Assembly (NCBI GenBank): GCA_016869025.1
Contig: VGFA01000001.1
Span: 140,309 to 204,308, forward strand
DNA length: 64,000 nt
DNA from: Armatimonadota bacterium
GTDB lineage: Bacteria; Sysuimicrobiota; Sysuimicrobiia; Sysuimicrobiales; Humicultoraceae
Direction of reading: 5' to 3'
The notes beneath the pieces were generated by a model, which was not told where the DNA came from, searched no databases, and saw only the letters and a list, made by a program, of their open reading frames with translations. The position numbers and the translations under genes are program-made. Shown here piece after piece: positions 2,779 to 40,179 of this stretch. Each line of letters starts with the position of its first letter. Positions within the stretch are counted from its first letter, which is position 1.

Positions 2779-3015
2779 ATGTGTCTGGCATTGCCGCACC
2801 GCATCACTCGGATTCTCGATTCTCGGAGGGCCCTAGCAGAGGGCCCCGACGGGGAGCGCACGATTTCGACTGACCTTGTCGGTGAACTTGCCCCAGGAGC
2901 GTATGTCATTGTGGTCTATGGGGCCGCTATCCGCGAAGTCGCCCCGGACGAGGCGGCCGAGATCCTCGGGCTCGTGGCCGAGCTCACCGCGCAGGATCCG
3001 CCCCTAACGCAATGA
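2779..3015 (+). CDS. hypC: Hydrogenase maturation factor HypC/HupF
   Basis: It begins MCLALP, the invariant Met-Cys-Leu-(A/G)-(I/V)-Pro N-terminus of HypC, and is 78 aa long. Its TGA overlaps the ATG of the next gene. Confidence 0.8.
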   Translation: MCLALPHRITRILDSRRALAEGPDGERTISTDLVGELAPGAYVIVVYGAAIREVAPDEAAEILGLVAELTAQDPPLTQ

Positions 3016-4571
3016 TCCGCTCACAGCCCTTGCGCCCCGCGGGTGCGCGCCGTCCCCTGGCAGCGTTGGTCGTGGCGCTGATCCTCCTGCTCGCTTGCTC
3101 TGGTGGCGCCGGGGCGTTGCCTGCCGGGCCGTTGCGGCTGGTGTGGTGGACTGATGTGGGGTTTCCGACGCCGTTTGCCGTCTCCACCCTGGGACCGGGC
3201 GGAGTGGTGCGCCTCTCGCTCCTCTACGACACCCTTGTCTGGAAGGATCACACCGGTGTGATTCCCTGGCTGGCAGAGTCGTGGCGGATCTCCGGCGACG
3301 GCAGGCGGTGGACGTTCACCCTGCGCCCTGACGTGGTCTGGCACGACGGCCGCCCCCTGACGGCCCGCGACGTGCAGTTCACCTTTGAGTACTACCGCCC
3401 CCACCCCTTTGTATGGGTTGACACATCCGTTGTTGCTGAGGTCACCACGGACGGCCCGCGCACCGTGACCTTCGTGCTCCGCGAACCCTTCGCGCCCTTC
3501 CTCGAGGACATCGCCGGAATCATCCCCGTCGTTCCGGCGCACGTCTGGGAAGGGGTGGCAGAGCCGCGTAAGGCGCAGGGTGTGGGTATGGCGACCGGCT
3601 CAGGGCCGTATCGGCTGGCAGAGTACCGGCCGGGAACCGGTGAGTACCGGCTCGAGGCAAACCACCGGTACTTCCGGGGTCGGCCCAGGTTCGAGGAGAT
3701 CCAGTACACGGTCATCCCCGCGGAACGGCAGTTGCTGGCCATTCAGAGCGGCCAGTCGGATGTGGCAATGGCCGATACCTACGACGTGGTGCGCGCGTTC
3801 TCCGGTCACCCATACTTACGGACCTGGCAGAGCGAGCCCCTGTCGGTTGCGCGCCTGCTGTTCAACACGGAGCGGCCGCCATTCGACCAGAGGGCGGCTC
3901 GCCAGTCCGTGGCCTACGGGATCAACCGCACGCAACTGGCGACGCTGGTCACGCGCGGGCCAGGGGTTCCTGGAAGCCCGGGCATCGTCCCGCCCACGGA
4001 CCGCTGGCATAACCCGCGCATCCGGGCCTATCCCTACGATCCAAGCAAGGCGCGGAGTCTGGTCGCGCAGGCAGGCCTGACGTCCCTGGCGTTTGAGCTC
4101 CTGGCCAGCCCTTCGCCGGTGGTGCCGGTAGTGCAGGAGATGCTGCGGCGCGCCGGGATCGAGGTGTCGGTGCGCACCGTGGACGCCCGGACCAGGGCCG
4201 CCCTGGTTGCGGAGGGCAAGTACCAGGCGGCGTTGACGTTTCACATAGGGGCCGGTGGGGACCCCGACTACCTGCGGCGGTGGCTCGGCGGCGGAGAGGC
4301 GAACCTCTTTGGGCAGTCCGCGGGGTTTACCCACCCCGAGTTCCGGCGCCTGGCCGCAGGGCAGGCCCGGACCCTGGATCAGGCCGCCCGCCGCGCGAGC
4401 GTCCACCGGATGCAAGAAATCCTGGCTGACGAACTTCCTACCCTTGCGCTCTACTACAGGCGGTTCTACTGGGTCTACGACAGCCGCAAGTTCATCCCCA
4501 CAGCCACGGCCGGGGGCCTGATGAACGGGATCCCGCTGATAGAGAACAAGCTCGCGTTCCTGGGGCGGTAG
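3012..4571 (+). CDS. ABC transporter substrate-binding protein, family 5 (Nik/Opp/Dpp type), probably nickel-related given its position
   Basis: 519 aa with a signal peptide and a family-5 solute-binding fold. Its start overlaps the hypC stop codon (ATGA). Confidence 0.8.
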   Translation: MIRSQPLRPAGARRPLAALVVALILLLACSGGAGALPAGPLRLVWWTDVGFPTPFAVSTLGPGGVVRLSLLYDTLVWKDHTGVIPWLAESWRISGDGRRWTFTLRPDVVWHDGRPLTARDVQFTFEYYRPHPFVWVDTSVVAEVTTDGPRTVTFVLREPFAPFLEDIAGIIPVVPAHVWEGVAEPRKAQGVGMATGSGPYRLAEYRPGTGEYRLEANHRYFRGRPRFEEIQYTVIPAERQLLAIQSGQSDVAMADTYDVVRAFSGHPYLRTWQSEPLSVARLLFNTERPPFDQRAARQSVAYGINRTQLATLVTRGPGVPGSPGIVPPTDRWHNPRIRAYPYDPSKARSLVAQAGLTSLAFELLASPSPVVPVVQEMLRRAGIEVSVRTVDARTRAALVAEGKYQAALTFHIGAGGDPDYLRRWLGGGEANLFGQSAGFTHPEFRRLAAGQARTLDQAARRASVHRMQEILADELPTLALYYRRFYWVYDSRKFIPTATAGGLMNGIPLIENKLAFLGR

Positions 4572-4589
4572 CCGGGGGCAGAGGAGACC

Positions 4590-5549
4590 GTGCGGCGCCT
4601 GGTACGCTACGCCGGGCTGGTGTGCATTGTAGTACTGCTGAACTTCCTCGTGCCGCGGCTGCTTCCCGGGAGTCCGGCAGCAGGCGGGGGCGGCGACGAG
4701 GCGGCGGTTCTGCCGTCTGCCGCCTACCGATCCCTGGTTGCCACCTATCACCTCGACCTCCCGCTGCCGGCCCAGCTCGCCAGATACATTGCCGGGTTGC
4801 CCAGGGGAGACCTGGGGTGGTCGTTGACATCGCACCGTCCGGTTGCCCGCATTCTGATGGAGCGGCTGCCCTGGACGCTCCTTCTTGTTGGCAGCGCCGT
4901 GGTGCTGGCCGCCGCGTTCGGCGGTGTCCTGGGGTGGGCGGCCGCCTGGTACGGTCGCCGCCGGGCCGTCCGCGTTCTGACCGCGGCCACCGTGGGAGTG
5001 GGCGCCCTGCCCGAGTTCCTGATCGGCATGGCGCTGATAGTTGTGTTCTCTTCTCGCCTGCAGATCTTCCCATCCGGTGGTGCCACCACCCCGTTTGCCG
5101 GCCATCATGGACTGATGCAGGCCGTGCTCGATGTGGCCTGGCACGCGGCGCTCCCGGGGTTCACGCTCGTCCTTGGCCTCACGCCGGCCTTTGCCCTGCT
5201 GATGCGCAATGCGCTCGTGCCGCTGCTGAGTGAACGGTACCTGGTGACGGCACGGGCCAAGGGGCTCACCTCCAGGCGTGTCGCCTGGCACGCGCTTCGC
5301 AACGCGTTGCCACCCGTGGCCACGCTCCTGGGACTCCGGCTGGGTACGGCAGTCGCCGGAGCGGCCGTGGTCGAGCGCATCTTTGCCTACCCTGGGATGG
5401 GCATGCTTCTGTACGAGGCGATAAGCACGCGCGACTACCCCTTGATGCAGGGCGTGTTTCTGGTAGCCAGCCTGGCGGTGCTGACGGTGAACCTGCTTCT
5501 GGACCTCGTTGCCGCCAGGCTCGATCCTCGACTCGAGGGCCAGGCGTGA
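4590..5549 (+). CDS. ABC transporter permease (DppB/NikB-like)
   Basis: 319 aa polytopic protein. It carries the binding-protein-dependent permease signature around RNALPPVATLLGLRLG. Confidence 0.8.
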   Translation: MRRLVRYAGLVCIVVLLNFLVPRLLPGSPAAGGGGDEAAVLPSAAYRSLVATYHLDLPLPAQLARYIAGLPRGDLGWSLTSHRPVARILMERLPWTLLLVGSAVVLAAAFGGVLGWAAAWYGRRRAVRVLTAATVGVGALPEFLIGMALIVVFSSRLQIFPSGGATTPFAGHHGLMQAVLDVAWHAALPGFTLVLGLTPAFALLMRNALVPLLSERYLVTARAKGLTSRRVAWHALRNALPPVATLLGLRLGTAVAGAAVVERIFAYPGMGMLLYEAISTRDYPLMQGVFLVASLAVLTVNLLLDLVAARLDPRLEGQA

Positions 5550-6397
5550 ACGCGCACGGCCGCCCGCGGCGCCGGCCGAACGGGCGAGGCACGGCCGCGA
5601 CCGGAGCCGCGGTGCTGGTCGCCCTTATCCTCCTGGCGATGGCCGCGCCCCTGCTGTCCCCTGAGGAGCCCGACCGCATAGCCGGAGATCCGGCCGCACC
5701 TCCTGGCCCGCGGTTCTGGCTGGGCACCAACGCGATGGGGCAGGACCTGTTCAGCCACCTGCTCTACGGCGCGCGGACCTCTCTCCTGGTGGGGTTTCTT
5801 GCCGCCTGCCTGTCCACGGGCCTCTCCGCCGCGGTCGGCATCTCCGCGGGGATGTGGCGGCGGGGCCAGGGCATGCTCATGGCGCTGGTGGACCTCTTCC
5901 TGGCCTTGCCCCAGGTGCCGCTCATCGTGCTGATGGTGGTCTTCTGGGGCCCGGGCTTCTGGCCGCTCGTGGGAACCCTGGCCCTGATCGGATGGGCCGC
6001 GTTCGCGCGCATCGTGCGCGCACAGGTTTCGGTTACCCTACGGAAGGAGTACGTTGAGGCGGCGCGCGCGCTGGGGGCTTCGGAAGGACGCGTGCTGCGG
6101 GCAATCGTCCTGATGGAGGTGGCCCCGATCCTGTTCACGAAGTTCCTGCTGACGGTGCGGTGGGCGGTCCTAATGGAGGCCACGCTGGGGCTGCTGGGAC
6201 TCGCCGATCCCGGTCGCGTGAGCTGGGGGCTCGTGCTCCACCAGGCCTTTGGGTACCCGCTGCTCTTCCTGAATGGCGCCTGGCTCTGGTGGGCTGTTCC
6301 CCCGGCTATCGGGATCGTGGTCGTGACCCTGGCCTTGATGGCCGTGGGGCAGGACGTTGACTTGTGGCTCAACCCGGCCATGCGTCCTCCGGCGTGA
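5546..6397 (+). CDS. ABC transporter permease (DppC/NikC-like)
   Basis: 283 aa polytopic permease. Its ATG overlaps the previous stop. No ATPase gene follows. Confidence 0.8.
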   Translation: MNAHGRPRRRPNGRGTAATGAAVLVALILLAMAAPLLSPEEPDRIAGDPAAPPGPRFWLGTNAMGQDLFSHLLYGARTSLLVGFLAACLSTGLSAAVGISAGMWRRGQGMLMALVDLFLALPQVPLIVLMVVFWGPGFWPLVGTLALIGWAAFARIVRAQVSVTLRKEYVEAARALGASEGRVLRAIVLMEVAPILFTKFLLTVRWAVLMEATLGLLGLADPGRVSWGLVLHQAFGYPLLFLNGAWLWWAVPPAIGIVVVTLALMAVGQDVDLWLNPAMRPPA

Positions 6398-6480
6398 ACC
6401 CTAGGGACGTCGCAAACGACCGGTCGTGCGCGGCACCTATGGGCGCCTCGCGGCCCATATCCTATGATGTCCACGGAGGG

Positions 6481-7269
6481 ATGCCCCGAATGCTGACTGG
6501 GTCGCTTCAGGTCGGCCCCCCTGTTCCTGCCGCCGCGGGAGCAGGAGGCGTCCTGGACGGCACGCTGCTGTTTGCCCGGTTCGCCTTCATGCCCAATCAC
6601 CTGGGCTACTGCGGCGACGACTCCAACGCCACGCTCCTCGCCTACATGCGGGAAAGCGTATCCGATCAGGGGCTGCGCCGCCACCTCAACGCGTTCTCCG
6701 GAGCCCTGCCCTATCTTCGTGTGATCGCGGAGTCCAACGGCATAGCCGATCCGTTTGACGCGCGGGTTGTGGAGGCATACTGGATCGGCAACGGCCTTCT
6801 GGAGACCGTGGACTGGGCGTTTCACGCCAGGCGTCTCCACGAGCGGTTCAGCGGCCGCGTGCGCCCGGCCACCATGGAGCTGCTGGTGGGCAAGCCGCGC
6901 GCCGGTGCGCGTGCCCACCACGCCTTCCACGTGTTCGACGTATCATTCCGTACCGGACTGCCCCAGGGCGATGCAGCGCTGGATCTCTGCCGCATCGGCT
7001 GGGGGACGGTCAACGCAGTGGAACCCGTTGCCTTCACGGTGACGTACCGGCCGATCGTCCTGCGACAGGGACGGCTTTGCTTTGGCGAGCCCCAGACGGA
7101 GCGTGTGCTTCGGGCGATGGGCACGGATCAGTTCCTGGATGAAGCGTCGGTGGGAGACGTGATCGCCTTCCACTGGCGGTGGGCATGCCTCAAGCTCACC
7201 CCGGCGCAGGTGGCCAACCTCGAACGGTACACCCAGGGCATGCTGGCCCTGGCAAACCAGACTTTCTGA
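6481..7269 (+). CDS. Conserved hypothetical protein embedded in the nickel-transport/hyp cluster
   Basis: The ORF runs 6364-7269. The likely start is the ATG at 6481 or 6490, because a GGAGGG sits 9 nt before 6490. No recognisable catalytic motif was found. It has four Cys residues. The sequence is soluble. Confidence 0.5.
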   Translation: MPRMLTGSLQVGPPVPAAAGAGGVLDGTLLFARFAFMPNHLGYCGDDSNATLLAYMRESVSDQGLRRHLNAFSGALPYLRVIAESNGIADPFDARVVEAYWIGNGLLETVDWAFHARRLHERFSGRVRPATMELLVGKPRAGARAHHAFHVFDVSFRTGLPQGDAALDLCRIGWGTVNAVEPVAFTVTYRPIVLRQGRLCFGEPQTERVLRAMGTDQFLDEASVGDVIAFHWRWACLKLTPAQVANLERYTQGMLALANQTF

Positions 7270-7280
7270 GGCAGAGCCGG

Positions 7281-7520
7281 ATGCACGAGGTGGCAATCGC
7301 ACAGGCCCTGCTGACCGAGGTAGAAGCCGCGGCTTCGCGGCACGGCCTGAAGAGCGTTTCAGCGGTGGGCATCTGCGTGGGACAGAACAGCGGCGTCGCG
7401 GCAGAGCCCTTGATGCAGGCGTTCGAGATCCTACGCGGGGGCTGCGCGGGTTGCGCGGTGCTCGATCTGAGGACCACCGAGGGCACCGACCTCCGCATGG
7501 AGTGGCTGGAGGGAGAATGA
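7281..7520 (+). CDS. hypA: HypA-like nickel-insertion protein, N-terminal Ni domain only (zinc finger absent)
   Basis: It starts MHEVAIAQALL, which carries the HypA Met-His-Glu nickel-binding N-terminus. It is only 79 aa. It has a single CAGC pair instead of the CxxC-x12-CxxC zinc site. The stop overlaps the hypB ATG. Confidence 0.65.
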   Translation: MHEVAIAQALLTEVEAAASRHGLKSVSAVGICVGQNSGVAAEPLMQAFEILRGGCAGCAVLDLRTTEGTDLRMEWLEGE

Positions 7521-8251
7521 CCGTGCGCGTGGAGGTAGTGGAGCGCATCCTGCGTGCCAACGATGCGCTGGCCGCCGAGGTCCGCGGACTGCTCGACCGG
7601 GCTGGCATCACGGCCGTCAACCTGATTGGTTCCCCGGGCAGCGGTAAGACCTCTCTCCTGGAACGGACTGCGGCCCTGCTCCACCCACGCCTTCGCCTCG
7701 GTGTCATAGAGGGAGACATCGCCACGACCCGCGATGCGGAGCGCGTTGCCCGCTGCGGTATCCCCGCAGTGCAGATCGAGACCCGCCTGGTAGGCAACGC
7801 GTGCCACCTGGACGCGAGCATGGTACAGACCGCGCTCGGTCGCCTGCCGCTGGCGGACGTGCAGGTCCTGTTCATCGAGAACGTCGGAAACCTGGTCTGT
7901 CCCGCGGCGTACGACGTCGGCGAGCACCTGCGCGTCGTGGTGGCAAGCGTTCCCGAGGGCGACGACAAGGTGTACAAGTATCCGTCCACATTCTCCAGGG
8001 CAGACGCGGTGGTCCTGAACAAGATAGACCTCGTTGCGGCCACCGAGTTCTCGCTCGAGGTCTTCACAGCCGGGCTGCGCGAGGTAACGGCGGCGCCGCT
8101 CTTCCCGGTCTCGGCACGCACCGGAGAAGGCGTGGCGGACTGGATCACCTGGATAGAGGCACGGCAGACCTGTCACGCGCGCGATGCGGCCCACCCCGCA
8201 ACGGCCGCCGGTCAGGATCCGGCGGTGTCAGACGGCACAGGGGCGGGCTAG
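7517..8251 (+). CDS. hypB: Hydrogenase nickel incorporation GTPase HypB
   Basis: It has a GSPGSGKTSL P-loop, an ENVGNLVCP motif and an NKIDL motif. The N-terminus lacks the Cys/His-rich metal site found in many HypB proteins. Confidence 0.9.
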   Translation: MTVRVEVVERILRANDALAAEVRGLLDRAGITAVNLIGSPGSGKTSLLERTAALLHPRLRLGVIEGDIATTRDAERVARCGIPAVQIETRLVGNACHLDASMVQTALGRLPLADVQVLFIENVGNLVCPAAYDVGEHLRVVVASVPEGDDKVYKYPSTFSRADAVVLNKIDLVAATEFSLEVFTAGLREVTAAPLFPVSARTGEGVADWITWIEARQTCHARDAAHPATAAGQDPAVSDGTGAG

Positions 8252-8265
8252 TCAAGGGGGACGAC

Positions 8266-8742
8266 ATGGAGGGATACTCTCCGACCGAGTTGCTGCGCTC
8301 CTCGCACCTGTTTGGGGCGCTGGAGCCCCAGCATCTGGAGAAGCTGGCCGCGATTGCCTCGGAGGTCACCTGGGCCGAGGGCCAGGTGATATTCCGGGAA
8401 GGCGAGGCCGATGACAGGTTGTACCTGGTGGTTGAGGGACTGGTGGCGCTGGAGATGTACATCCCCAATCGCGGCCGCGCCACGATCCTGACCGCCGGCC
8501 CGCACGAGATATTCGGGTGGTCGGCGGCCGTACCGGTTGTCGGGAAGAAGACCGCCGGCGCGCGCGCCCTGCAGAGGACGCGGGCCATTGCCATAGATGC
8601 GGGCGCGCTGTGCGCGGCCTGCGAGCAGGATCACGACCTCGGCTTCTACGTCTATCGCACCCTGGCAGATGTTATTGCCAGCCGCCTGACCGCGACGCGC
8701 CTGCAACTGCTGGACGTGTACGCGGTTGGCAAGGGAGAGTGA
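8266..8742 (+). CDS. Stand-alone cyclic-nucleotide-binding (CAP effector) domain protein, no DNA-binding domain
   Basis: 158 aa with a CAP_ED fold (FGALEP...IFGWSAAVPVVGKKTAGARALQ). The phosphate-binding Arg-Thr-Ala is Lys-Thr-Ala here. Its 3' end overlaps the hydrogenase beta subunit gene. Confidence 0.7.
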   Translation: MEGYSPTELLRSSHLFGALEPQHLEKLAAIASEVTWAEGQVIFREGEADDRLYLVVEGLVALEMYIPNRGRATILTAGPHEIFGWSAAVPVVGKKTAGARALQRTRAIAIDAGALCAACEQDHDLGFYVYRTLADVIASRLTATRLQLLDVYAVGKGE

Positions 8743-9877
8743 GGGACGGTTGATGGTTGAGCAGACACCACCGCTTGGCGGGCAGGTGGTAATCTCCAAG
8801 CCAGCCCTGCAGCAGATCTTCGATGCGCTGCGCACGGTCGGCTACTGCCTGATTGGCCCGACCGTGCGCGGGGATGCCATTGTGTACGACGAGATCGCCC
8901 TCCTGGACGATCTTCCCATCGGGTGGGCCGATGAGCAGGGGCCGGGCACCTACCGGCTCCATCGCCGCGACGATCAGGCGCACTTCGGGTTCGTCGTCGG
9001 TCCGCACTCGTGGAAGAGGTATCTATACCCGCCGTCGCTGAGACTCTTCTCGACGCGCCGGGACGGGGACGGGTTCAGCGTCGAGGCGAACACCGATTCT
9101 CCGCCCTTGTACGCGTTCATTGGCGTGAGAGGGTGCGAGCTGGCGGCCATCGCCGTGCAGGATCGGGTGTTTCTCGAGGGTCCGGTGCAGGAGCCGCACT
9201 ACAAGACCCGCCGCGAGCGCGCTTTCGTCCTGGCCGTGAACTGCACCGAGCCAGGCGGCTCCTGCTTCTGCGCATCCGTGAGGACCGGCCCCAGGTGTTC
9301 GTCTGGTTTCGACCTGGCCCTGACCGAGATGGACGACGTCTTCCTGCTGGAAGTCGGCTCGGCACTGGGAGCGCAGATGCTGTCCGGGGTTGAGTGGCGG
9401 CTGGCCGGCGCCTTCGACCTGAGCCGCGCCCGGCAGGCAATGGCCGATGCCTTGACGCGCATGGGCAGGGGGCTCAACACCCACAACCTGCCTGATCTGC
9501 TGTACGACAACCTGGAACACCCCCACTGGGAGGACGTGGCGAAGCGCTGCCTCTCGTGCGCCAACTGCACCATGGTGTGCCCCACCTGCTTCTGCTCTGA
9601 CGTGCTGGAGGCAAGCGATCTCACCGGCGAGACCGCCGCGCGTGTGCGCGTCTGGGACTCCTGCTTCAATCGCGAGTTCTCCTACGTGTTCGGCGGGCAC
9701 CTTCGGCCAAACACACGCGCCCGATACCGCCAGTGGCTCACGCACAAGCTGGCATCGTGGAAGGACCAGTACGGCGTCTCGGGGTGCGTGGGGTGCGGTC
9801 GGTGCATAACGTGGTGCCCGGTGGGCATTGACCTGACCGCGGAACTTGCGGCCATCAGAGGGGAGAGCCCGCTATGA
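8726..9877 (+). CDS. [NiFe] hydrogenase group-3b-type beta subunit (HydB/AsrA-like 4Fe-4S protein)
   Basis: 383 aa with the ferredoxin motifs CLSCANCTMVCPTCFC and CVGCGRCITWCP. Confidence 0.75.
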   Translation: MARESEGRLMVEQTPPLGGQVVISKPALQQIFDALRTVGYCLIGPTVRGDAIVYDEIALLDDLPIGWADEQGPGTYRLHRRDDQAHFGFVVGPHSWKRYLYPPSLRLFSTRRDGDGFSVEANTDSPPLYAFIGVRGCELAAIAVQDRVFLEGPVQEPHYKTRRERAFVLAVNCTEPGGSCFCASVRTGPRCSSGFDLALTEMDDVFLLEVGSALGAQMLSGVEWRLAGAFDLSRARQAMADALTRMGRGLNTHNLPDLLYDNLEHPHWEDVAKRCLSCANCTMVCPTCFCSDVLEASDLTGETAARVRVWDSCFNREFSYVFGGHLRPNTRARYRQWLTHKLASWKDQYGVSGCVGCGRCITWCPVGIDLTAELAAIRGESPL

Positions 9878-10743
9878 ACCCAACCCAGGCCAAGAGCCAA
9901 CGCCCACCATCTACCGGCCACCCCCTGGTACCCCAGCCGGCGGTGATCACCCACGTGCAACCCGAGGCGCAGGGCGTTACGACGTACACGCTGGAGTTCA
10001 ATGACCCGGCCGTGCGCGAGGCATACCGCTTTTGCCCTGGCCAGTTCAACATGCTCTACCTGCCGGGCATCGGGGAGTCGGCCATATCCATCAGCTCGGA
10101 TCCGGCTGAGCCCGCCCTCCTGCGTCATACGATCCGCTTCGCCGGCAACGTCACCCAGGCCATCTCCAGGATGGATGCCGGCGGCGTGATAGGCGTGCGC
10201 GGCCCCTACGGAAACCCCTGGCCCGTGGACCGGGCAGTGGGCAACGACCTGATAATCGTGGCCGGAGGCATCGGCCTGGCCCCTCTGCGCCCGGTAATCT
10301 ACCACGTTCTCAGGCACAGGGCCGACTACGGCAAGGTTACCATCCTGAACGGTGCGCGTCTCCCGACCGACCTGCTCTACCCGCAGGAGTACGACCTGTG
10401 GCGTAGCCGAGACGTCGAGGTCGTCGTGACCGTGGACCGCGCCGACGAGGCGTGGAAAGGCCGCGTGGGCGTGGTACCCATGCTGTTCTACGCGGTGAGG
10501 CCCGACCCCAAGCGCACGACCGTCTTCACTTGCGGGCCGGAAATCATGATGCACTTCGTGGTCTACGAGGCGCTGGCGCGTCGAGTCCCCAAGGAACGCA
10601 TCTACCTGTCGCTGGAGCGCAACATGAAATGCGCTGTTGCATTCTGCGGTCGCTGCCAGTACGGCCCGACCTTCCTGTGCAAGGATGGGCCGGTCCTGAG
10701 TTACGACCGCATTGAGCCGTTCTTCACCGTGGAGGAGTTCTGA
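9874..10743 (+). CDS. [NiFe] hydrogenase gamma subunit (FAD/NAD(P)-binding, 2Fe-2S; HydG/AsrB-like)
   Basis: 289 aa with a ferredoxin-reductase-type fold. The C-terminus carries [17 protein letters not shown]. Its ATG overlaps the previous TGA. Confidence 0.75.
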
Positions 10744-11543
10744 TGGCTACTCCCAAGAAGCGCAAGCCCAGCCTGGCGGTGTTCAAGTTCGCGTCATGCG
10801 ACGGCTGCCAGCTTTCGCTGCTGGATTGTGAGGATGCCGTGCTCGCCGTGGCCGACGCGGTGGAGATTGCCTATTTCGTCGAGGCCCGCCGGCAGGCACT
10901 TGCCGGCCCCTATGACGTGACCCTGGTCGAGGGCTCGGTAACCACCGAAGAGGAAGTCGAGCGCATCAAGGAAGTACGGCGCCAATCCGGGCTGCTGGTG
11001 ACCATCGGCGCGTGCGCCACCTCCGGCGGCATCCAGGCACTGCGCAACTGGGCGGACGTGGGCGAGTTCACGCGGACCGTTTACGCCAGCCCCGAGTACA
11101 TCCACACGCTGGATCGCTCGCGTCCGATCAGCGATTTCGTGCCCGTGGACTTCGAGCTGCGCGGTTGCCCCATCAGCAAGCAGCAGCTCGTGGACCTTGT
11201 CACCTCGCTGCTGATCGGGCGCAAGCCGTCGGTACCGGAACACGCGGTGTGCAACGAGTGCAAGCGGCAGGGGACGGTCTGCGTGATGGTCGCGGAGGGG
11301 GTCCCGTGCCTGGGTCCGGCCACGCAGGCCGGGTGCGGCGCGATCTGCCCGGCCTACAACAGGGGGTGCTACGGGTGCTTCGGCCCAATGGATCTGTCCA
11401 ATCCGGCCGCGCTCGGCGCCCGCTTCATCGCGATGGGACAGACCGCTCGTGACGTCAGCCGCGCCTTCCGCGGCTTCAACGGCTACTCGGCGGTCTTCCG
11501 GGCGGCCAGCGAGCAGTTTGAAAAGGACGCCATCCCAAGTTAG
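10743..11543 (+). CDS. [NiFe] hydrogenase small (delta) subunit
   Basis: 266 aa with Cys clusters typical of the hydrogenase small subunit / NuoB-like family ([22 protein letters not shown]). Confidence 0.8.
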
Positions 11544-11559
11544 TCAGGGGAGAGAGGCA

Positions 11560-12864
11560 ATGGCCGAGAGACGCATCAACGTGGACTACCTGGCCCGCGT
11601 CGAGGGTGAGGGCGCGCTGCGGGTCGTGATCAAGGACGATCGCGTTACCGACGTCCAGCTCAACATATTCGAGCCGCCACGCTTCTTCGAGGCGTTTCTG
11701 CGAGGCCGCACGCCCCAGGAGACCGTGGACATCACGGCCCGAATCTGCGGCATCTGCCCGGTGGCCTACCAGATGAGCGCCGCCCACGCGTTGGAGAAGG
11801 CCCTGGGCGTGACCCCTCCGCCCGGCGTACGCGCCCTGCGCCGGCTGCTCTACTGCGGCGAGTACATCGAGAGCCACGTGTTGCACATCTTCATGCTGCA
11901 TGCGCCGGATTTCATCGGACACGAGTCGGCCATCAGCATGGCCACCGATCCGGCCCTGCGTCCGCTGGTCGAGCAGGCGCTGCGAATGAAGAAGATCGGC
12001 AACCACCTGGTGACGGTCATCGGTGGGCGCGAGATCCACCCGGTCTCGGCATGCGTGGGCGGCTTCTACCGGGCGCCGCGCAAGTCGGAACTCGTGGCCC
12101 TGGTTCCGGATCTCGAGTGGGGCCTCGAGAGGGCGGTGGAGGCCGTGCGGTGGGCGGCCACGCTGGACTATCCTGACTTCACCGCCGACTACGAGTTCGT
12201 CTCCCTGTCACATCCTGATGAGTACCCCTACAACGAGGGGCGCGTGGTGTCGTCCAGAGGGCTGGACATCCCGATAGAAGAGTACGAGCGGCACTTCCTA
12301 GAGGAGCACGTCGAGCACTCCAACGCGCTTCACTCGCGCCGCGCGGGCAGCAAGACGAGCTACATGGTGGGGCCGCTGGCGCGGGTGAACCTGAACTTCG
12401 ACCGGCTCTCGCCCAGGGCCCAGTCGGCGGCGCGTGACATCGCGCTGACCCTGCCCGTGCGCAACCCGTTCATGAGCCTGCTCGCGCGCGGGCTGGAGCT
12501 GGTTCATGCCTATGAGGAGGCGCTCCAGTTGATCGCCTCCTACGTGGAACCCGTTCCCTCAAGGTCGCCCATCCCCACGCCTCCGAGGGCCGGGGAGGGA
12601 GCCCATGCCACCGAGGCACCGCGCGGTCTGCTGTACCACCGGTACACGGTAGACGCAGCGGGCCTGATCGCCGGTGCCAGGATCGTACCGCCGACCGCGC
12701 AGAACCTGAGGCGCATGGAGGACGACCTGTGGCAGTACGTGCCCGGGGTGCTGGCTCTACCGCTCGAGGAGGCCACGCTGCGCTGCGAGCAGCTCGTGCG
12801 CAGTTACGATCCGTGCATCTCGTGCGCCACGCACTTCTTGAAGCTCGACCTTGAGCGGGAATAG
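11560..12864 (+). CDS. [NiFe] hydrogenase large (alpha) subunit
   Basis: It has the N-terminal [10 protein letters not shown] motif (first CxxC Ni ligands). The C-terminal [10 protein letters not shown] is followed by a short tail, which is the protease cleavage site. 434 aa is the size of a group-3 enzyme. Confidence 0.9.
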
Positions 12865-13360
12865 GGAGAGAACTGCCGGGGCCAAGGCCCCATCCGCGCT
12901 GATCATAGGCATTGGTAACGCGTCGCGGGGCGACGATGCGGCAGGGCTGATCGCCGCCCGCCTGATCAGGGATGCGCTTCTTTCCCTCCCGGATCCCCCG
13001 GATCCGGGGCGCGTTGCGGTGCTCGAACAGGATGGCGAGGGCACCGCCCTTGTCGCGGCCTGGAAGGGCGCGGAGACCGTGATCCTGATAGATGCCGCCC
13101 TCTCCGGCGCGGCTCCCGGCAGCATACACCGCTTCGATGCCCTCGGCCAGCCGCTCCCGGCCGGGTTCCGCGCTTGCTCGACTCACGCGTTCGGAGTGGC
13201 AGAGGCGATCGAGCTGGCCAGGGCGCTGGACCGGCTGCCGCAGCGGCTCATCGTCTACGGAATCGAGGGCCTGTCGTTCTCGGCAGGCGAGGTGCCCTCG
13301 GAGGCGGTCGAGGCCGCGGTACGGGCGGTGGTCGAGCGCGTGCTGGCCGACGTAAGGTAG
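12851..13360 (+). CDS. Hydrogenase maturation endopeptidase (HycI/HoxW family)
   Basis: It has the [16 protein letters not shown] motif and the D...H core. It overlaps the large-subunit stop. Confidence 0.8.
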
Positions 13361-14067: not shown

Positions 14068-14715
14068 ATGCGCGTGCGCACCCTGATGACGTCGCCGGCG
14101 CTCGTGGTTGGGCCGGAGGCCCCGGCCTGGGAGGCCCTGGGGCTCATGCGGAGGCACCGCATCCGGCGCCTGCCGGTTGTGGACGGCGAGGTCCTGGTCG
14201 GGATCATTACCTGGACCGATGTGGTCCGCGTGCATGCTCCGGCGGTTGAGGGCCCCAGGCGCACTCCAACCCTGTCGGTGGGAGTGCTCGTCAGGCACCT
14301 GATGGCCAGCGCGCCCGTGACGGTTGATCCGGACGCCACGATTGAGCAGGCGGCCGCGCTCATGCGCCGACACAAGATCGGGGGGCTGCCTGTGGTCGAG
14401 GACGGCCGGCTGGTCGGCGTCATCACCGAGAGCGACCTGTTCGAGGCCTTCGCGGAGATGCTTGGGGCCGGCCCGCATGAGGTCAAGCTCCACCTGGCAG
14501 TTGGCAGCATTTCCGTTGAACTTCCAAGAATCGTGTCTAGGCTGACGAAGGCCGGAATCCCCATAGTTGCCGTGCACACGCTGCGCACCTCGGGTGCGGA
14601 GGTCGTAGAACTCGTGGTTCACGAGAACGACGTGGGGCGCGCCCGGGAGGTATTGCACCGTCTTGCCCTCGAAACAGACGTCGTGGAAGCGCAGGAGAGG
14701 GGGGACCGCGCGTGA
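14068..14715 (+). CDS. acuB: AcuB-like CBS-CBS-ACT protein (paralogue 2)
   Basis: 215 aa with two CBS motifs and a C-terminal ACT domain. It lies immediately downstream of the acuA homologue, as in the Bacillus acuABC operon. Confidence 0.75.
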   Translation: MRVRTLMTSPALVVGPEAPAWEALGLMRRHRIRRLPVVDGEVLVGIITWTDVVRVHAPAVEGPRRTPTLSVGVLVRHLMASAPVTVDPDATIEQAAALMRRHKIGGLPVVEDGRLVGVITESDLFEAFAEMLGAGPHEVKLHLAVGSISVELPRIVSRLTKAGIPIVAVHTLRTSGAEVVELVVHENDVGRAREVLHRLALETDVVEAQERGDRA

Positions 14716-14993
14716 CCGCGAGCAGAGAAGGCAATGCTTCCGTCGGGGTGATCCCGCCGCAGCGGGTGCTCATCGCCGCCGAGCGGTGCAAGGGCTGCGG
14801 GCTTTGCGTGGCCGTCTGCCCGCCTGAGATCATGGAGTTGGGGTCGCTCAACCGCCTGGGGTATGCTGTTGTGCGCGTGACCGATCAGGCCCGGTGCACT
14901 TCCTGCACGGCGTGCGCGCTGGTCTGCCCGGAGGTGGCCATCACTGTGATGCGCCCCCAGCGGGCCCGCCAGACGCGGGAGGGCGCCAAGTGA
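14712..14993 (+). CDS. korD: 2-oxoacid:ferredoxin oxidoreductase delta subunit (2x[4Fe-4S] ferredoxin)
   Basis: 93 aa with the motifs [12 protein letters not shown] and [12 protein letters not shown]. Confidence 0.85.
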
Positions 14994-16042
14994 AGCGCAC
15001 CTTGATGAAGGGAAACGAGGCGCTGGCCGAGGCGGCCATTCGCGCCGGTTGCAGGGCCTATTTCGGCTATCCGATCACGCCCCAGAACGAGGTGCCGGAG
15101 TACATGGCCCGCCACATGCCAGGGGCGGGTGGCGTCTTCGTGCAGGCAGAGAGCGAGATCGCGGCCATCAACATGGTCCACGGCGCTGCGGGCGCCGGCG
15201 TCCGCGCTATGGCCACCACCAGCAGCCCCGGATTTAGTCTGATGACAGAAGGCCTTTCCTACATGATCGGCTCCCGGCTGCCGTGCGTCGTGGTCAACGT
15301 GATGCGCGGAGGTCCTGGGCTCGGCAACATTGCACCGGCGCAGGGAGATTACTTCCAGGTTACCCGCGGGCTGGGACACGGTGACACCCACGGCATCGTG
15401 CTAGCGCCGTCCACGGTCCAGGAGATCGTTGACCTCATGCCCGTCGCGTTCGAGCTGGCCGAGCGCTACCGGCTGCCAACGGTGATCGCCGCAGACGGCA
15501 TACTCGGGCAGATGATGGAACCGGTGGCGCTGCCTGAACCCATCGCGCCTCCGCCTCCTCCTGAGTGGGCCACGACCGGCGCGGTGGGAAGCCCCCGCGT
15601 GATCTCGTCCATCTATCTGGCGCCGGAAGAGCTCGAACAGCACGTCCTTTCCCTGATGAGGACCTACCAGGAAATCCGCGAGCGCGAGCAGCGATGGGAG
15701 GCCTACCGCGCCGACGACGCGGAGGTGCTCGTTGTGGCCTACGGGACCGCGGCCCGCGTTGTGCGATCGGCCGTGGATCGCGTGCGCGCGCAGGGAGTCG
15801 CAGCCGGATTGATCAGGCCGATCACCCTCTGGCCGTTCCCGACTTCCGCGTTCGAGATGTCGCCGCGCCGGTGGCTGGTTGTGGAACTCAGCGCGGGACA
15901 GATGGTGGAGGACGTTCGCCTCGCCGTATCGGGCAGGGCGCCGGTCGGATTGTACGGCCGCGTCGGTGGGGTAGTGCCTTCTCCGGCGGAGGTGTCGGAG
16001 GCGATTCGGGCGGCCGTGGCCGAGGAGGTGGCCTGGGCATGA
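14990..16042 (+). CDS. korA: 2-oxoacid:ferredoxin oxidoreductase alpha subunit
   Basis: It has the [11 protein letters not shown] and [18 protein letters not shown] signatures. A GTG start overlaps the korD stop. An alternative ATG lies at 15005. Confidence 0.85.
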
Positions 16043-16800
16043 TCAAGGACATGGTTGAGGTTACGGCCAGGCCCCGCTCGCTGGTGGACGTGCCCCTGCA
16101 CTACTGCCCGGGTTGCACGCACGGCATAATCCACCGTCTGGTGGCCGAGGCCATTGACAGTCTGGGCATCCGGGAGCGGACTATCGGCGTAGCGTCGGTT
16201 GGGTGCTCGGTCTTCATCTACAACTACCTCGACGTGGACTTCCAACAGGCCCCGCACGGCAGGGCGCCGGCGGTTGCCACGGGCATCAAGCGCGTACTGC
16301 CCGACCGCGTCGTGTTCACCTACCAGGGGGACGGCGATCTGGCCTCGATAGGCGCCGCTGAGATCCTCCACGCCGCCGCGCGGGGCGAGCGCATCACGGT
16401 CATCTTCGTGAACAACGCGATCTACGGCATGACCGGCGGTCAGATGGCGCCGACCACGCTGTCCGGAATGAAGACCACGACCACCCCCTTCGGCAGGGAG
16501 ATCCGCCAGGCGGGGGGGGCGCTGCGCGTGGTCGAACTCCTGGCCGGCATGGACGGCGTGGCATACGCCGCGCGCGAAGCGGTCACGAGCCCTGCCCGTA
16601 TCCACCGGGCCCGCCGCGCCGTAGAGGCCGCGTTCAGGGCGCAGATCGAGGACAGGGGTTTGGGCATAGTCGAGCTGCTCTCGACCTGTCCGGTGAACTG
16701 GAAGCTCCCGCCGGTCGAGGCGGTCGCGTGGTGCGAGGCCAACATGATCCCCGCGTTCCCGCTGGGCGTCCTGAAGGACACCACCGGGAGCGGGGGGTAG
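16039..16800 (+). CDS. korB: 2-oxoacid:ferredoxin oxidoreductase beta subunit (TPP-binding)
   Basis: It has YCPGCTHG and [12 protein letters not shown] motifs. Its ATG overlaps the korA TGA. Confidence 0.85.
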
Positions 16801-16804
16801 CAGC

Positions 16805-17344
16805 ATGGCCGTCCACGAGATCGTGATAGCCGGCTTCGGGGGACAGGGCGTGCTGTTTCTGGGTGAAGTCCTCGCGCAGGCGGCCCTCAGCGAGGGGCGC
16901 GAGGTAACCTGGCTGCCCGCTTACGGACCGGAGCAGCGCGGCGGCACCGCGTACTGTACGGTCGTGATCAGCAGCGAACCCATCGGCTCGCCTGTGGCCT
17001 CAGACCCAACCGTGGTGATCGCGATGAACCGGCCGTCGCTGGACCGGTTTGAGCCCGCGGTTCGGCCCGGGGGCCTGATCGTATGCGATAGCACGCTGAC
17101 GGGGAGGGTACCTGAGCGCGCCGACGTCCAGGCCATTGCGGTGCCGGCGACGGCCATCGCCGCCGAGCTGGGCGCGGCGCGGGCGGCGAATGTCGTGCTG
17201 CTGGGCGCCACAATGGCGGCGAGACCGATCCTTACGATAGAGAGCGTGCGCGCGGCCCTGGACGGGATGGTGGCAGACCCTCAGGTCATGGCGCGTAACC
17301 TTGCGGCGTTCGAGCGCGGCGCGCGCGAGGGCTCCCGCCCATGA
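16805..17344 (+). CDS. korC: 2-oxoacid:ferredoxin oxidoreductase gamma subunit
   Basis: 179 aa. It has the gamma-subunit signature IAGFGGQGVLFLGEVL...GPEQRGGTAYCTVVIS. Confidence 0.85.
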   Translation: MAVHEIVIAGFGGQGVLFLGEVLAQAALSEGREVTWLPAYGPEQRGGTAYCTVVISSEPIGSPVASDPTVVIAMNRPSLDRFEPAVRPGGLIVCDSTLTGRVPERADVQAIAVPATAIAAELGAARAANVVLLGATMAARPILTIESVRAALDGMVADPQVMARNLAAFERGAREGSRP

Positions 17345-18027
17345 AGCAGGCCCGAGACGCTTCGCCGGGAGGCCCCAGGACCATCCGGCTCATTGTCGCC
17401 GACGACCATGCCATCGTGCGCGAGGGCATCAAGCGCCTGCTCCAGGCCGAGCCGGACATCGAGGTCGTGGGTGAGGCGGGTGACGGTGTCGCGGCCGTGG
17501 AGATGGCCCAGGATCTCAAGCCCGACGTTGTGTGTCTGGATGTCAGCATGCCCAGGATGAATGGGGTGGAGGCGACCCGGCGCATCAGGGCCTCCCTGCC
17601 GGACGTCGGGGTGGTCGTCCTGACAATGCACGAGGACGAGGACTACGTGTTCGAGTTGGTGAAGGCAGGCGCTTCGGGCTACGTCTTGAAGCGGGCCAGC
17701 GCCCGCGACCTGGTGGATGCCGTGCACGCCGTGGCCGGGGGCCACACATTCCTGCATCCAATGATTGCGCGGCGGCTGGTCTCGGATCACGAGACATCCA
17801 GCAGCCGCGACGAAGAACGCCGGCGGTTCGACGGCCTGACCGAACGGGAACGCGAGGTCGTACGCCTGATCGCCGATGGCCTGACCAACAAGGAGATCGC
17901 GGAACGGCTCCACATCAGCGTCAAGACCGTCGAAACCCATCGCACGCACATCATGGAGAAGCTCGATCTGCACGATCGCGCACACCTGGTGCGCTACGCT
18001 GTCCGGAAGGGGCTGGTCACCGCATGA
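17341..18027 (+). CDS. Orphan two-component response regulator, NarL/FixJ (LuxR-HTH) family
   Basis: The receiver domain is IRLIVADDH...VVCLDVSMP...VLK. The C-terminal LuxR HTH is LTEREREVVRLIADGLTNKEIAERLHISVKTVETHR. Both ends overlap neighbouring genes (ATGA). Confidence 0.85.
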   Translation: MKQARDASPGGPRTIRLIVADDHAIVREGIKRLLQAEPDIEVVGEAGDGVAAVEMAQDLKPDVVCLDVSMPRMNGVEATRRIRASLPDVGVVVLTMHEDEDYVFELVKAGASGYVLKRASARDLVDAVHAVAGGHTFLHPMIARRLVSDHETSSSRDEERRRFDGLTEREREVVRLIADGLTNKEIAERLHISVKTVETHRTHIMEKLDLHDRAHLVRYAVRKGLVTA

Positions 18028-37841: not shown

Positions 37842-38933
37842 ATGCCCGCCCGCATCCTTACGGTCGACCCCCAGGCGCCCGGTGCCGCGGCTATCGGCGA
37901 GGCGGCCGCGGTTCTCTCTGCGGGCGGCCTGGTCGCCTTTCCCACCGAGACGGTCTACGGCCTGGGCGCCGACGCCCTGAACCCGCGCGCGGTGGAGCGC
38001 ATCTACGCCGCGAAGGGCCGCCCGGTTGACAACCCGATCATCGTGCACATCGCCGATCCCGGCGCCCTGGGCGGACTGGTTGGCGACGTGCCCCCGGCCG
38101 CGCAGATCCTGATAGCGCGCTGCTGGCCGGGTCCGCTTACCCTTGTGCTGCCGGCCGCGCCGGTGGTGCCTTCCGTGACGCGAGGCGGACTGCCGACGGT
38201 GGCCGTGCGCATACCCGCGCACCAGGTGGCGCTGGCCCTGATCCGCGCAGCCGGGTGCCCTGTGGCCGCGCCCAGCGCGAACCGGTCGGGCCGACCCAGC
38301 CCGACCACGGCGCAGCACGTGCTTGCCGACGTGGGTGGGTCGGTTGAACTCGTGCTCGACGGCGGTCCAACGCCGGTGGGAGTAGAGTCCACAGTGCTCG
38401 ACCTCACATGCGATCCGCCGGCGCTCCTGCGACCGGGCGGGGTATCGCTGGAACAACTTGTGGCGATCGTCGGTCAGGTGACCGTTCCCGTGCTGGGTGC
38501 CGCCGCGGCAGGCACCGCTGCGCCGGAGGTGCAGGCCGCGCTGGCGCGCTCGCCTGGCACGCGGTACCGCCACTACGCGCCGCGGGCAAGGGTGGTGCTG
38601 GTGGAGGCCCTGCCGGAGGTACCGCCGGAGGAGGCCGGTGCCGCGCAGCCCGCCGCCGAGCTGTCCGCGGCCGTGCGCCGGCTGTGGGACGAGGGTCTGC
38701 GCGTCGGCGTCATGGTGACAGTCGAGGCCGCTTCCAGAGTTCCCGAGGGTGCGGTCGTGCGGGTGATGGGACCGCGCGCCGATCCTGCGGCCGTGGCCGC
38801 CAGGCTGTTCGCCCTCCTGCGCGAGCTCGACGACGCAGGTCTCGATGCGATCGTGGTGGAGGGGATTCCTGAGCAGGGACTGGGCAGGGCGGTGATGGAC
38901 CGGCTGCGCAGGGCGGCAGGCCAGGCCGGGTGA
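37842..38933 (+). CDS. tsaC: L-threonylcarbamoyladenylate synthase, long Sua5-type (YrdC domain plus Sua5 C-terminal domain)
   Basis: It has the motifs FPTETVYGLGADA and KGRP, and is 363 aa long. Confidence 0.9.
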   Translation: MPARILTVDPQAPGAAAIGEAAAVLSAGGLVAFPTETVYGLGADALNPRAVERIYAAKGRPVDNPIIVHIADPGALGGLVGDVPPAAQILIARCWPGPLTLVLPAAPVVPSVTRGGLPTVAVRIPAHQVALALIRAAGCPVAAPSANRSGRPSPTTAQHVLADVGGSVELVLDGGPTPVGVESTVLDLTCDPPALLRPGGVSLEQLVAIVGQVTVPVLGAAAAGTAAPEVQAALARSPGTRYRHYAPRARVVLVEALPEVPPEEAGAAQPAAELSAAVRRLWDEGLRVGVMVTVEAASRVPEGAVVRVMGPRADPAAVAARLFALLRELDDAGLDAIVVEGIPEQGLGRAVMDRLRRAAGQAG

Positions 38934-38943
38934 GCCCCTGCCA

Positions 38944-38953
38944 TGGTATAATA
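38944..38953 (+). promoter_or_regulatory. Extended -10 promoter element (TGGTATAAT) for ssrA
   Basis: It lies about 34 nt upstream of the mature tmRNA 5' end. Confidence 0.55.
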
Positions 38954-38985
38954 AGCGTGCTTGGTCGTAGCCGCAGCCAGAATGT

Positions 38986-39335
38986 GGGGGCGATCGGTTT
39001 CGACTGGGTGGGAAGCAGCAGAGCTGCGAGCCGAGGTGGTCAGGTCCTCGTTAATCAACTGGCAGGCGCACAAACGCCAACACACAGTACGCACTCGCCG
39101 CTTAAATAGCGTCGACGCTCACCTGGTAGGGCCGGCGGCCCGGGCTGAGCGCCACAAGCCGGCTACCGTCGGGCGTCCTGGCCCGGGACGCGCGATGGGA
39201 ATCCCAACGGGCTGGCAGCTGGAGCATCCGGTCTGCGGGAGGCTCCGGCAGCGAGATCCAAAGCGCAGACTACGCTCGTAGACGCTCCGCCCTCATCCAC
39301 TCAGGACGCGGGTTCGATTCCCGCCGCCTCCACCA
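38986..39335 (+). ncRNA. ssrA: tmRNA (transfer-messenger RNA, SsrA)
   Basis: The 5' GGGGGCG pairs with the 3' CGCCUCC-A-CCA, including the G3·U70 alanine identity pair. The 3' T-arm is GGGUUCGAUUCCC. An internal tag reading frame at 39076-39105 encodes ANTQYALAA*. smpB lies 3 kb upstream. Confidence 0.95.
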
Positions 39336-39348
39336 ATCGTCCTTTAGC

Positions 39349-39372
39349 CAGGACGCGGGTTTCCGCCCGCGT
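39349..39372 (+). terminator. Rho-independent-type terminator hairpin for ssrA
   Basis: GACGCGGG-tttccg-CCCGCGTC followed by a T-rich stretch (attggttttggt). Confidence 0.6.
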
Positions 39373-39680
39373 CATTGGTTTTGGTGGCAACTGGGTGGCA
39401 GACTTTGACGTGTGGCGGGGTCGCAGCAAATGCCCGTGGACGGACTGACAGCACGGGAATCGGCTCCTCGGGTACGAGGGCGGCACAGGATCGTCGGCCA
39501 TGATCGAGTCTCGACCCTGTTCTCGGTGAGACGCCTCCACTCAACGACTCGGTGGACATCCCGGAAGAGAAGCCGGTGACACTCTAGGCAGTGCCCCGCC
39601 AGCGGATGCGGTCAGGTCATCAGGTTCTGGGACGACTCCTGGGGCCTAGCGTCGTACCGGCCGGAGCCATGATCTCAGGC

Positions 39681-39718
39681 GCGTATCAAGTGGCGTATCA
39701 GGTGATACGCCGATACGC
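39681..39718. promoter_or_regulatory. Nested direct/inverted repeat operator-like site
   Basis: gcgtatca-agtg-gcgtatca-gg-tgatacgc-c-gatacgc. The core GGCGTATCA-GG-TGATACGCC is a perfect 9-bp inverted repeat with a 2-bp spacer. Confidence 0.45.
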
Positions 39719-39792
39719 TTCCCAGAGAGCCGTCGGCGTATACTTCGCCCCCAACTGGCCAGGCACCGCGACGGTAGCTACCCTTCATGAGA

Positions 39793-40089: not shown

Positions 40090-40128
40090 GCGCGCTTGCC
40101 TCCTCGGGTGTGGTCACAAGACGCCCCA
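40090..40128 (-). promoter_or_regulatory. Conserved leader element, short copy A (RBS-proximal part)
   Basis: On the minus strand the leader reads ggggcgtcttgtgaccacacccgaggaggcaagcgcgc-ATG, matching copies B and C. Confidence 0.55.
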
Positions 40129-40179
40129 ACACCTAGCGTTGCTGCAGACCTGCGCACAAGAACAGGCCGGCACTCGCAA

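Follow-up and report, generated by a model that had tools for sequence, protein, structure and literature searches.

A gene encoding a small protein with the cyclic nucleotide-binding (CNB) fold was analyzed within a 64,000-nucleotide (nt) stretch of the genome of an Armatimonadota bacterium (assembly GCA_016869025.1, contig VGFA01000001.1, positions 140,309 to 204,308 of the forward strand), referred to below as the window. This gene (8266 to 8742, + strand) is located in an operon for an [NiFe] hydrogenase whose genes are all on the + strand. It is preceded by hypB, encoding a nickel-insertion GTPase (7517 to 8251; TIGR00073, E value of 1.4e-72), and followed by genes for the beta subunit, a HydB/AsrA-like iron-sulfur (Fe-S) protein (8753 to 9877; Fer4_22 and sulfhyd_HydB, the latter with an E value of 4e-45); the gamma subunit, an AsrB-like FAD- and NAD(P)-binding protein (9874 to 10743; Pfam and NCBIfam matches); the delta or small subunit (10743 to 11543; Oxidored_q6 and sulfhyd_HydD, 5e-50); the alpha or large [NiFe] subunit (11560 to 12864; sulfhyd_HydA, 1e-78, with the N- and C-terminal CxxC motifs RICGIC and DPCISCATH in the translation); and a hydrogenase maturation endopeptidase (12851 to 13360; TIGR00072, 6e-31). 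The CNB gene is thus flanked by a maturation gene on one side and by structural genes on the other. The best NCBIfam matches of the four structural genes were the HydB, HydG, HydD and HydA models of the Pyrococcus sulfhydrogenase, with scores under the equivalog cutoffs, and the beta subunit matched that of Pyrococcus furiosus sulfhydrogenase I (PDB 9nez_B) with an E value of 6e-41. On the basis of these subunit matches and motifs, the enzyme is assigned to the group-3b-type, NAD(P)-linked [NiFe] hydrogenases. A promoter/terminator scan detected no promoter-like site between 5400 and 14200, and terminator-like sites occurred at chance level.

Gene model and predicted fold

The CNB open reading frame (ORF) extends from an ATG at 8266 to a TGA at 8740 to 8742 and encodes 158 amino acids (aa). 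A Shine-Dalgarno-like sequence, AAGGGGGA, can be read at 8254 to 8261 (+), 5 to 12 nt before the ATG and within the 14-nt spacer separating the end of hypB from the start of the CNB gene. In frame, the ORF reaches back to a GTG at 7801, an extension that overlaps ∼450 nt of hypB in a different frame, and no homologue with such an N-terminal extension was present among the 120 listed (102 to 172 aa, with PF00027 only). An upstream start bringing an extra domain, which a first-pass annotation of this DNA had raised as a possibility, was therefore ruled out, and the protein is a bare CNB domain. Downstream, the ATG of the beta gene at 8753 has a GAGGGA at 8741 to 8746, six bases ahead, and gives an N terminus that matches the length of beta homologues; with this start, the CNB-beta spacer is 10 nt. 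At homologous loci, the gaps between the two genes were mostly 8 to 50 nt when measured from tblastn match boundaries. An overlap of the CNB and beta genes arises only if beta starts at a TTG at 8726, a start that is possible but less likely than the ATG. The first-pass annotation was correct in placing the CNB gene, which directly precedes beta, in the hydrogenase operon, while the overlap that it described is probably absent.

A single Pfam cNMP_binding domain (PF00027) was detected at residues 34 to 121, with a score of 49.9 bits relative to a gathering cutoff of 27.5 (E value of 3.2e-13), and the Pfam scan found no helix-turn-helix (HTH) or second domain in the 158-aa protein. Matches to the NCBIfam CRP/FNR and FtrB models were confined to the N-terminal effector halves and were far under the cutoffs. 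An AlphaFold2 model generated with 36 family sequences (predicted local distance difference test [pLDDT] score of 86; predicted template modeling [pTM] score of 0.81) exhibited N-terminal helices, an 8-stranded barrel and a long C-terminal helix at residues 123 to 153, after which only 5 residues remain. The top matches of this model in a Foldseek search of the PDB were GlxR, Mycobacterium tuberculosis CRP (MtbCRP), 2pqq and 3mdp, with domains of PKG also being recovered; E values for the CNB domains of CRP and PKG were 1e-12. No hydrogenase-associated chain was found for the CNB protein by either the PDB sequence search or Foldseek, which yielded only CRP, PKG, CNG and structural-genomics CNB domains. 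The protein has a CNB fold and no DNA-binding domain, as the first-pass annotation had stated. Relatives are nevertheless often annotated publicly as "Crp/Fnr family transcriptional regulator."

The ligand pocket

The Glu residue of the phosphate-binding cassette (PBC) of CNB domains contacts the ribose 2′-OH, and the Arg residue contacts the cyclic phosphate. Residue equivalences for the window protein were derived from an alignment to MtbCRP and from an hhalign alignment to Escherichia coli CRP. The cassette, spanning residues 83 to 101 (FGWSAAVPVVGKKTAGARA; 8512 to 8568, +), is remodelled. W85 (codon 8518 to 8520) occupies the position of E72, the ribose-binding Glu of E. coli CRP, and K95 (codon 8548 to 8550) that of R82, the phosphate-binding Arg. 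T96, A97 and R100 are equivalent to S83, A84 and R87, with T96 and A97 counting as retained, and K95-T96-A97 pairs with R-T-S of MtbCRP. Both alignments confirmed the K-T-A in place of R-[ST]-A that had been picked out in the first-pass annotation. As the Glu of the canonical G-E-[LIV] is replaced by Trp85 and the Arg of R-[ST]-A by Lys95, the alignments indicate that both of the residues that define cyclic-nucleotide binding are changed, the former to a near-invariant Trp. In the C-helix, R140, T144 and R145 were aligned by hhalign with R123, T127 and S128 of E. coli CRP, which are adenine-contact positions.

Conservation was assessed across 244 relatives. Trp was present at position 85 in 237 of these (97%), and the neighboring G84 and S86 were found in 95% and 96%, respectively. 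Position 95, by contrast, was variable, being R in 33%, K in 32%, W in 14% and M in 11% of the relatives. These differences follow two subfamilies. In the subfamily of the window protein, the cassette reads GWS[AS]..P....[KR]T[AT], and position 95 was R in 45, K in 12 and E in 3 of 61 loci. In a sister subfamily, the cassette is one residue shorter and reads GWSWL[FI]PPY.[RH]W[HR]F, with Trp at the Arg position in 17 of 18 loci. Judged from these alignments, Lys95 is a conservative substitution for Arg that is in the minority within one subfamily, at a position that is unconserved in the family as a whole. The Arg-to-Lys change, which the first-pass annotation took to be the key feature, is less fundamental than the constant anomaly, the Glu-to-Trp change, which it had overlooked. 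Its reservation that Lys could be a common functional variant was borne out with respect to frequency, since Lys is common here, but not with respect to function, as there was no sign of normal cAMP binding.

From the pocket sequence, canonical binding of cAMP or cGMP is unlikely. Members of the window subfamily keep a basic residue and a Thr ([KR]-T-A) together with the R123 and T127 equivalents, suggesting that a non-cyclic anionic or adenine-containing ligand, for which NAD(P)H would be a candidate, is possible but unproven for this subfamily. With its cassette filled by aromatic residues, the sister subfamily speaks for a protein-protein contact, rather than the binding of a common ligand, as the function that the two would share.

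Conserved motifs outside the cassette were examined in the same 244 relatives. P67-x-R69-G70-R71 (8464 to 8478, +; P in 90%, R69 in 78% and G70 in 91%) aligns with the beta4-beta5 flap of CRP, and its designation as a putative flap follows from the alignment to the "DEEGKE" of CRP. C119-E-x-D122-H123-D-L-G126 (8620 to 8643, +; C in 86%, D in 84%, H in 70% and G in 98%) is located where the last two helices meet, and the C-helix carries the signature R140-L-x-A-T144-R145-L-Q147-L-L-D150 (8683 to 8715, +; R140 in 97%, R145 in 98%, Q147 in 92% and D150 in 94%). The window protein possesses all of the marks of this "GWS" family, namely, G-W-S, P-x-R-G-R, C-x-x-D-H-x-x-G and R-L-x-A-T-R-L-Q-L-L-D. 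Interaction interfaces could be formed by the strongly conserved P-x-R-G-R flap and by the polar helix at the C terminus.

Relatives and gene order

A genome scan restricted to one genome per species detected at least 588 loci encoding relatives of the CNB protein. Relatives were encoded by metagenome-assembled genomes (MAGs) labelled as Chloroflexota/Anaerolineae, Armatimonadota, "Candidatus Sysuimicrobiota," Acidobacteriota and Planctomycetota, and the closest among the matches listed was from an unclassified MAG (91% identity). When 1.8 billion representative proteins were searched with a profile, 406 representatives matched at an E value of ≤1e-30, mostly of 150 to 170 aa. Gene order was scored for the best 80 of the at least 588 loci. 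Hydrogenase genes adjoined the CNB gene in 79 of the 80, the sole exception being a 2.7-kb contig; the co-occurrence with group-3b hydrogenases that the first-pass annotation had suggested checking was thus found. The order CNB-beta-gamma-delta-alpha was observed in 61 loci, from Chloroflexota and Armatimonadota MAGs, while the order beta-CNB-gamma-delta-alpha was observed in 18 loci and is found mostly in Acidobacteriota and Planctomycetota MAGs. The latter order was also present on Burkholderia and Rhodococcus plasmids, and it was seen for all three beta relatives that were picked by beta similarity alone (including one from a KSB1 MAG), with gene overlaps of 4 to 38 nt. Across many phyla, relatives of the CNB gene are co-operonic with the structural genes, frequently with an overlap of stop and start codons. 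The identity of the CNB proteins to that of the window co-varied with the identity of the hydrogenase subunits (Spearman rho of 0.37 to 0.68).

The profile search also yielded a natural fusion of a beta subunit with a C-terminal CNB domain (P0260, 542 aa), and a follow-up search detected at least 12 clusters of such fusions (539 to 546 aa, with Fer4_22 and cNMP_binding). Covalent linkage in at least 12 clusters implies that the two domains are present at a 1:1 ratio in the mature protein. In one fusion locus (L083/L084, 7001 to 9184), a second CNB gene comes after the fusion gene and precedes gamma, delta, alpha, a protease gene and hypFCD. The product of the second CNB gene is a diverged protein of 133 aa with GYC in place of GWS, and the presence of two CNB domains per operon is consistent with a heterodimer-like pair. 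Proteins with two CNB domains in tandem were also found (P0123 and P0125) and similarly fit with a dimer. Another protein with Fer4_22 and cNMP_binding, P0281, has 720 aa and is encoded at 7001 to 9163 of locus L085, upstream of hydrogenase and hyp genes that are fragmented; the contig is probably a long-read one rich in frameshifts, and a genuine triple fusion is improbable.

Distant relatives with 34 to 37% identity were detected in Streptomyces, on plasmids or chromids (L090, L091 and L092), as orphan genes with no adjoining hydrogenase. The only one of these that was aligned, L090, keeps the G-W-S and the C-terminal helix motif. The neighbors in L090 and L092 encode universal stress proteins, a CBS protein, GAF sensor proteins or kinases, a response regulator, a globin-domain protein and an Rrf2 regulator, a setting whose gene content suggests hypoxia/NO-stress-type loci, and those in L091 encode a carbonic anhydrase and a glucose-6-phosphate dehydrogenase. 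An exclusive association of the wider family with hydrogenases is ruled out by these orphans.

Comparison with HoxI and other known proteins

The NAD+-reducing soluble hydrogenase of Cupriavidus necator (Ralstonia eutropha; group 3d) has the composition HoxFUYHI2, in which the non-catalytic CNB-domain protein HoxI is present as a "regulatory" dimer that is loosely attached (PMC3189943, PMC12809855); HoxI-type subunits come off this type of enzyme readily (PMC3189943). A CNB protein of a methanotroph 3b cluster has been labelled "HoxI," with the proposal of NADP(H) binding being repeated (PMC12319191), and a CNB gene is listed without comment in the 3b cluster of Rhodococcus equi (PMC13332983). 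HoxI, as fetched from pHG1, has 167 aa compared to the 158 aa of the window protein, and both are small, HTH-less CNB proteins encoded inside a soluble [NiFe] hydrogenase operon. The cassette of HoxI is also non-canonical, with His at the Arg position (P-H-S). High salt and alkaline pH dissociate HoxI from its enzyme. HoxI, however, keeps G-E-L where the window family has G-W-S and is without the RLxATRLQLLD helix and the C-x-x-D-H motif. Its partners are the group 3d HoxFU diaphorase rather than the group 3b beta and gamma subunits, and hoxI is located after hoxW at the end of its operon, whereas the window-family gene is located before or after beta. BLASTP aligned the window protein with HoxI over 50 residues with an E value of 0.003, and hhalign gave a probability of 93.0% and an identity of 18% for the family versus HoxI, compared to a probability of 93.6% versus E. 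coli CRP. Orthology with HoxI was ruled out by the marginal BLASTP match, by an hhalign result no better than that for CRP and by the unshared signature motifs. The window protein may be functionally analogous to HoxI but is not its orthologue.

The best sequence and structure matches were the CRP-type effector domains of E. coli CRP, MtbCRP and Corynebacterium glutamicum GlxR (E value of 6e-12 for MtbCRP; Foldseek template modeling [TM] scores of 0.70 to 0.76). These domains share the barrel, the C-helix and the R123- and T127-equivalent residues with the window protein, which differs from CRP-type proteins in the absence of a DNA-binding domain, in the changes of E72 to Trp and R82 to Lys, and in its family-specific flap and C-helix motifs. 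Two single-domain CNB proteins of ∼140 to 150 aa are known from structural genomics, Gmet_1532 of Geobacter metallireducens (3mdp) and 2pqq of Streptomyces coelicolor. While 3mdp superposes on the model at 1.7 Å with a TM score of 0.90 normalized to the target, both proteins are outside the family by sequence, with E values of 1e-10 to 1e-14 compared to 1e-33 or better for members. The beta, gamma, delta and alpha subunits of P. furiosus sulfhydrogenase I (HydBGDA; PDB 9nez and 9nf0) are homologous to the products of 8753 to 12864 in the window, and a PDB search indicated that its beta subunit is the only one of the 3b type in that database. A literature search found no characterization of the hydrogenase-linked CNB family, only the passing mentions in PMC12319191 and PMC13332983, and found no literature linking hydrogenase, sulfhydrogenase or Hyd3 of Mycobacterium smegmatis with cyclic nucleotide or cAMP binding.

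Surroundings of the operon

A gene for a DUF6390 protein (6364 to 7269, +; PF19927, E value of 8e-62) is located upstream of hypB. The three closest loci (L001 to L003) share this synteny of DUF6390, hypB, CNB and hydrogenase genes, and the DUF6390 gene may encode an unrecognized accessory for hydrogenase maturation or nickel. Directly before DUF6390-hypB, at 3012 to 6397 (+), are a family-5 solute-binding protein gene and two permease-like ORFs of the oligopeptide/nickel ABC type, which may form a nickel uptake system. After the hydrogenase genes, at 14894 to 17344 (+), are three genes for a 2-oxoacid:ferredoxin oxidoreductase (POR_N/PFOR_II, TPP_enzyme_C and POR gamma), an enzyme that might supply or take up low-potential electrons.

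The hydrogenase is also flanked by genes for a universal stress protein, two CBS-pair proteins (one with DUF2007) and a NarL/DosR-type response regulator (240 to 695, 1898 to 2605, 14068 to 14715 and 17341 to 18027, all +). The last of these regions encodes a separate DNA-binding regulator with Response_reg and GerE domains. Locus L087 is similar, with a universal stress protein, a PAS-HisKA_3 kinase and a Response_reg-GerE regulator adjoining beta-CNB-gamma-delta-alpha. The stress, CBS and regulator genes flanking the hydrogenases of the window and L087 recall the setting of Hyd3 in the hypoxia (DosR) regulon of actinobacteria; in M. smegmatis, this 3b (Hyd3) cluster is strongly upregulated when oxygen is limited (PMC2799521). 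No adenylate or guanylate cyclase was found among the window genes scanned against Pfam, a scan that covered part of the ORFs. Elsewhere in the window, an ORF of 1,543 aa (44774 to 49405, +) with a coding-like GC content at third codon positions (GC3) of 0.85 had no Pfam match at an E value of ≤1e-5, and ∼4 kb (38933 to 42886) was without a confident ORF by GC3-based gene picking.

Discussion

These analyses make it likely, in our assessment, that the CNB protein is a non-DNA-binding fifth subunit or accessory of bacterial group-3b hydrogenases, with a non-canonical CNB fold and drawn from a large uncharacterized family. It is read as a subunit or accessory and not as a gene regulator because the family is almost always encoded inside an operon for a soluble NAD(P)-linked [NiFe] hydrogenase. 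The protein would dock on the beta subunit with its Fe-S clusters, either as a non-catalytic fifth subunit or as a tightly bound accessory, would probably dimerize via its long C-helix and, as an analogue of the HoxI dimer, might modulate at the post-translational level how the enzyme assembles, its oligomeric state or its activity; canonical sensing of cAMP or cGMP would not be expected. The proposal of the first-pass annotation that the protein acts on the enzyme rather than on transcription, and that it is improbable as a normal receptor for cAMP or cGMP, remains the best reading. The association with hydrogenase is itself visible in public annotation; the two subfamilies, the beta fusions and the rebuilt pocket were not found described elsewhere, and they lead to the prediction that many bacterial 3b hydrogenases would consist of five components.

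Several observations weigh against a fifth subunit. For every member of the family, the status of 3b hydrogenase subunit is a prediction. The 3b enzymes of M. smegmatis and P. furiosus were characterized as four-subunit complexes (PMC13332983), a listing of the Hyd3 genes of M. smegmatis has no separate CNB gene (PMC2799521), and the P. furiosus structure contains four subunits (PDB 9nez), whereas the bacterial operons add a fifth gene. When the fusion protein P0272 was modelled with AlphaFold2 (pLDDT score of 81.6), both domains were folded, but the pTM score was 0.68, the linker at residues 377 to 385 was disordered and confident docking was not obtained. The sharp differences between the pockets of the two hydrogenase-linked subfamilies argue against one shared ligand, and the Streptomyces orphans indicate that the CNB module can work outside hydrogenase.

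It is possible, but doubtful, that the protein is an allosteric sensor subunit, which would bind a non-cyclic metabolite (such as NAD(P)H, adenine nucleotides or other anionic cofactors) or sense redox state through the conserved Cys/Asp/His patch and, via its contact with the Fe-S beta subunit, would switch the electron flow or the oligomeric state of bacterial group-3b hydrogenases. An NAD(P)H-binding role could at present be proposed by analogy only. The related suggestion that the protein is a HoxI orthologue giving the hydrogenase an NADPH-binding or activating site is unlikely. HoxI is indeed a 167-aa CNB protein from a soluble-hydrogenase operon and a subunit of its enzyme (PMC3189943), a 3b-cluster protein has been given its name with the NADPH idea cited (PMC12319191), and 3b enzymes use NAD(P)(H), but orthology was rejected on BLASTP, hhalign, motifs and partner enzymes. 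We regard as improbable a role as a maturation or assembly factor, for example in loading Fe-S clusters or FAD into beta or gamma or in holding an assembly intermediate, instead of as a subunit of the finished enzyme. This would accord with the hypB neighbor at the head of the operon in the window, and the ready dissociation of HoxI-type subunits (PMC3189943) makes absence from purified four-subunit enzymes compatible with such a role. In the sister subfamily, however, the gene is inserted between those for the beta and gamma subunits, with codons that overlap, and the 1:1 presence in the mature protein implied by the at least 12 clusters of beta fusions also counts against a transient factor.

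A genuine, perhaps weak, cAMP or cGMP receptor that couples the second messenger to hydrogenase, with Lys standing in for Arg, which was among the readings of the first-pass annotation, is quite improbable. The Pfam cNMP_binding match is above threshold, K or R is present in 57 of the 61 window-subfamily loci ([KR]-T-A), and R140 and T144 align with R123 and T127 of CRP. Against these points, the Glu for the ribose 2′-OH is Trp in 97% of the family, and the sister subfamily, which is equally hydrogenase-linked, has W/H-W-F for R-[ST]-A in a cassette one residue shorter. Many Crp/Fnr-type CNB folds, moreover, bind other ligands or none. The public labels of relatives would fit a truncated or mis-called Crp/Fnr transcription factor, or transcription control via a partner, but this is very improbable: there is no HTH, beta starts 10 nt after the stop codon, hundreds of relatives have ∼160 aa with a conserved C terminus, an upstream extension would overlap hypB and the neighborhood already encodes a bona fide response regulator.

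Hydrogenases of group 3b belong to the most widely distributed ones in bacteria of soils and sediments. In many bacterial operons for these enzymes, a fifth gene is conserved, in some cases as a fusion to beta. The product of this gene has a sensor-type fold and a rebuilt pocket, and the automated label of "Crp/Fnr family transcriptional regulator" is misleading for these genes. Should the protein prove to be a true subunit, models of the structure and kinetics of bacterial 3b enzymes would be incomplete, and an unrecognized regulatory input may exist, in parallel to HoxI of the biotechnologically used soluble hydrogenase. If the protein is a sensor, there would be a widespread and unstudied post-translational control of H2 metabolism in Chloroflexota, Acidobacteriota, Planctomycetota, Armatimonadota and KSB1 MAGs and on Actinomycetota and Burkholderiales plasmids, and the Streptomyces orphans of the hypoxia/NO type would use the same sensing module.

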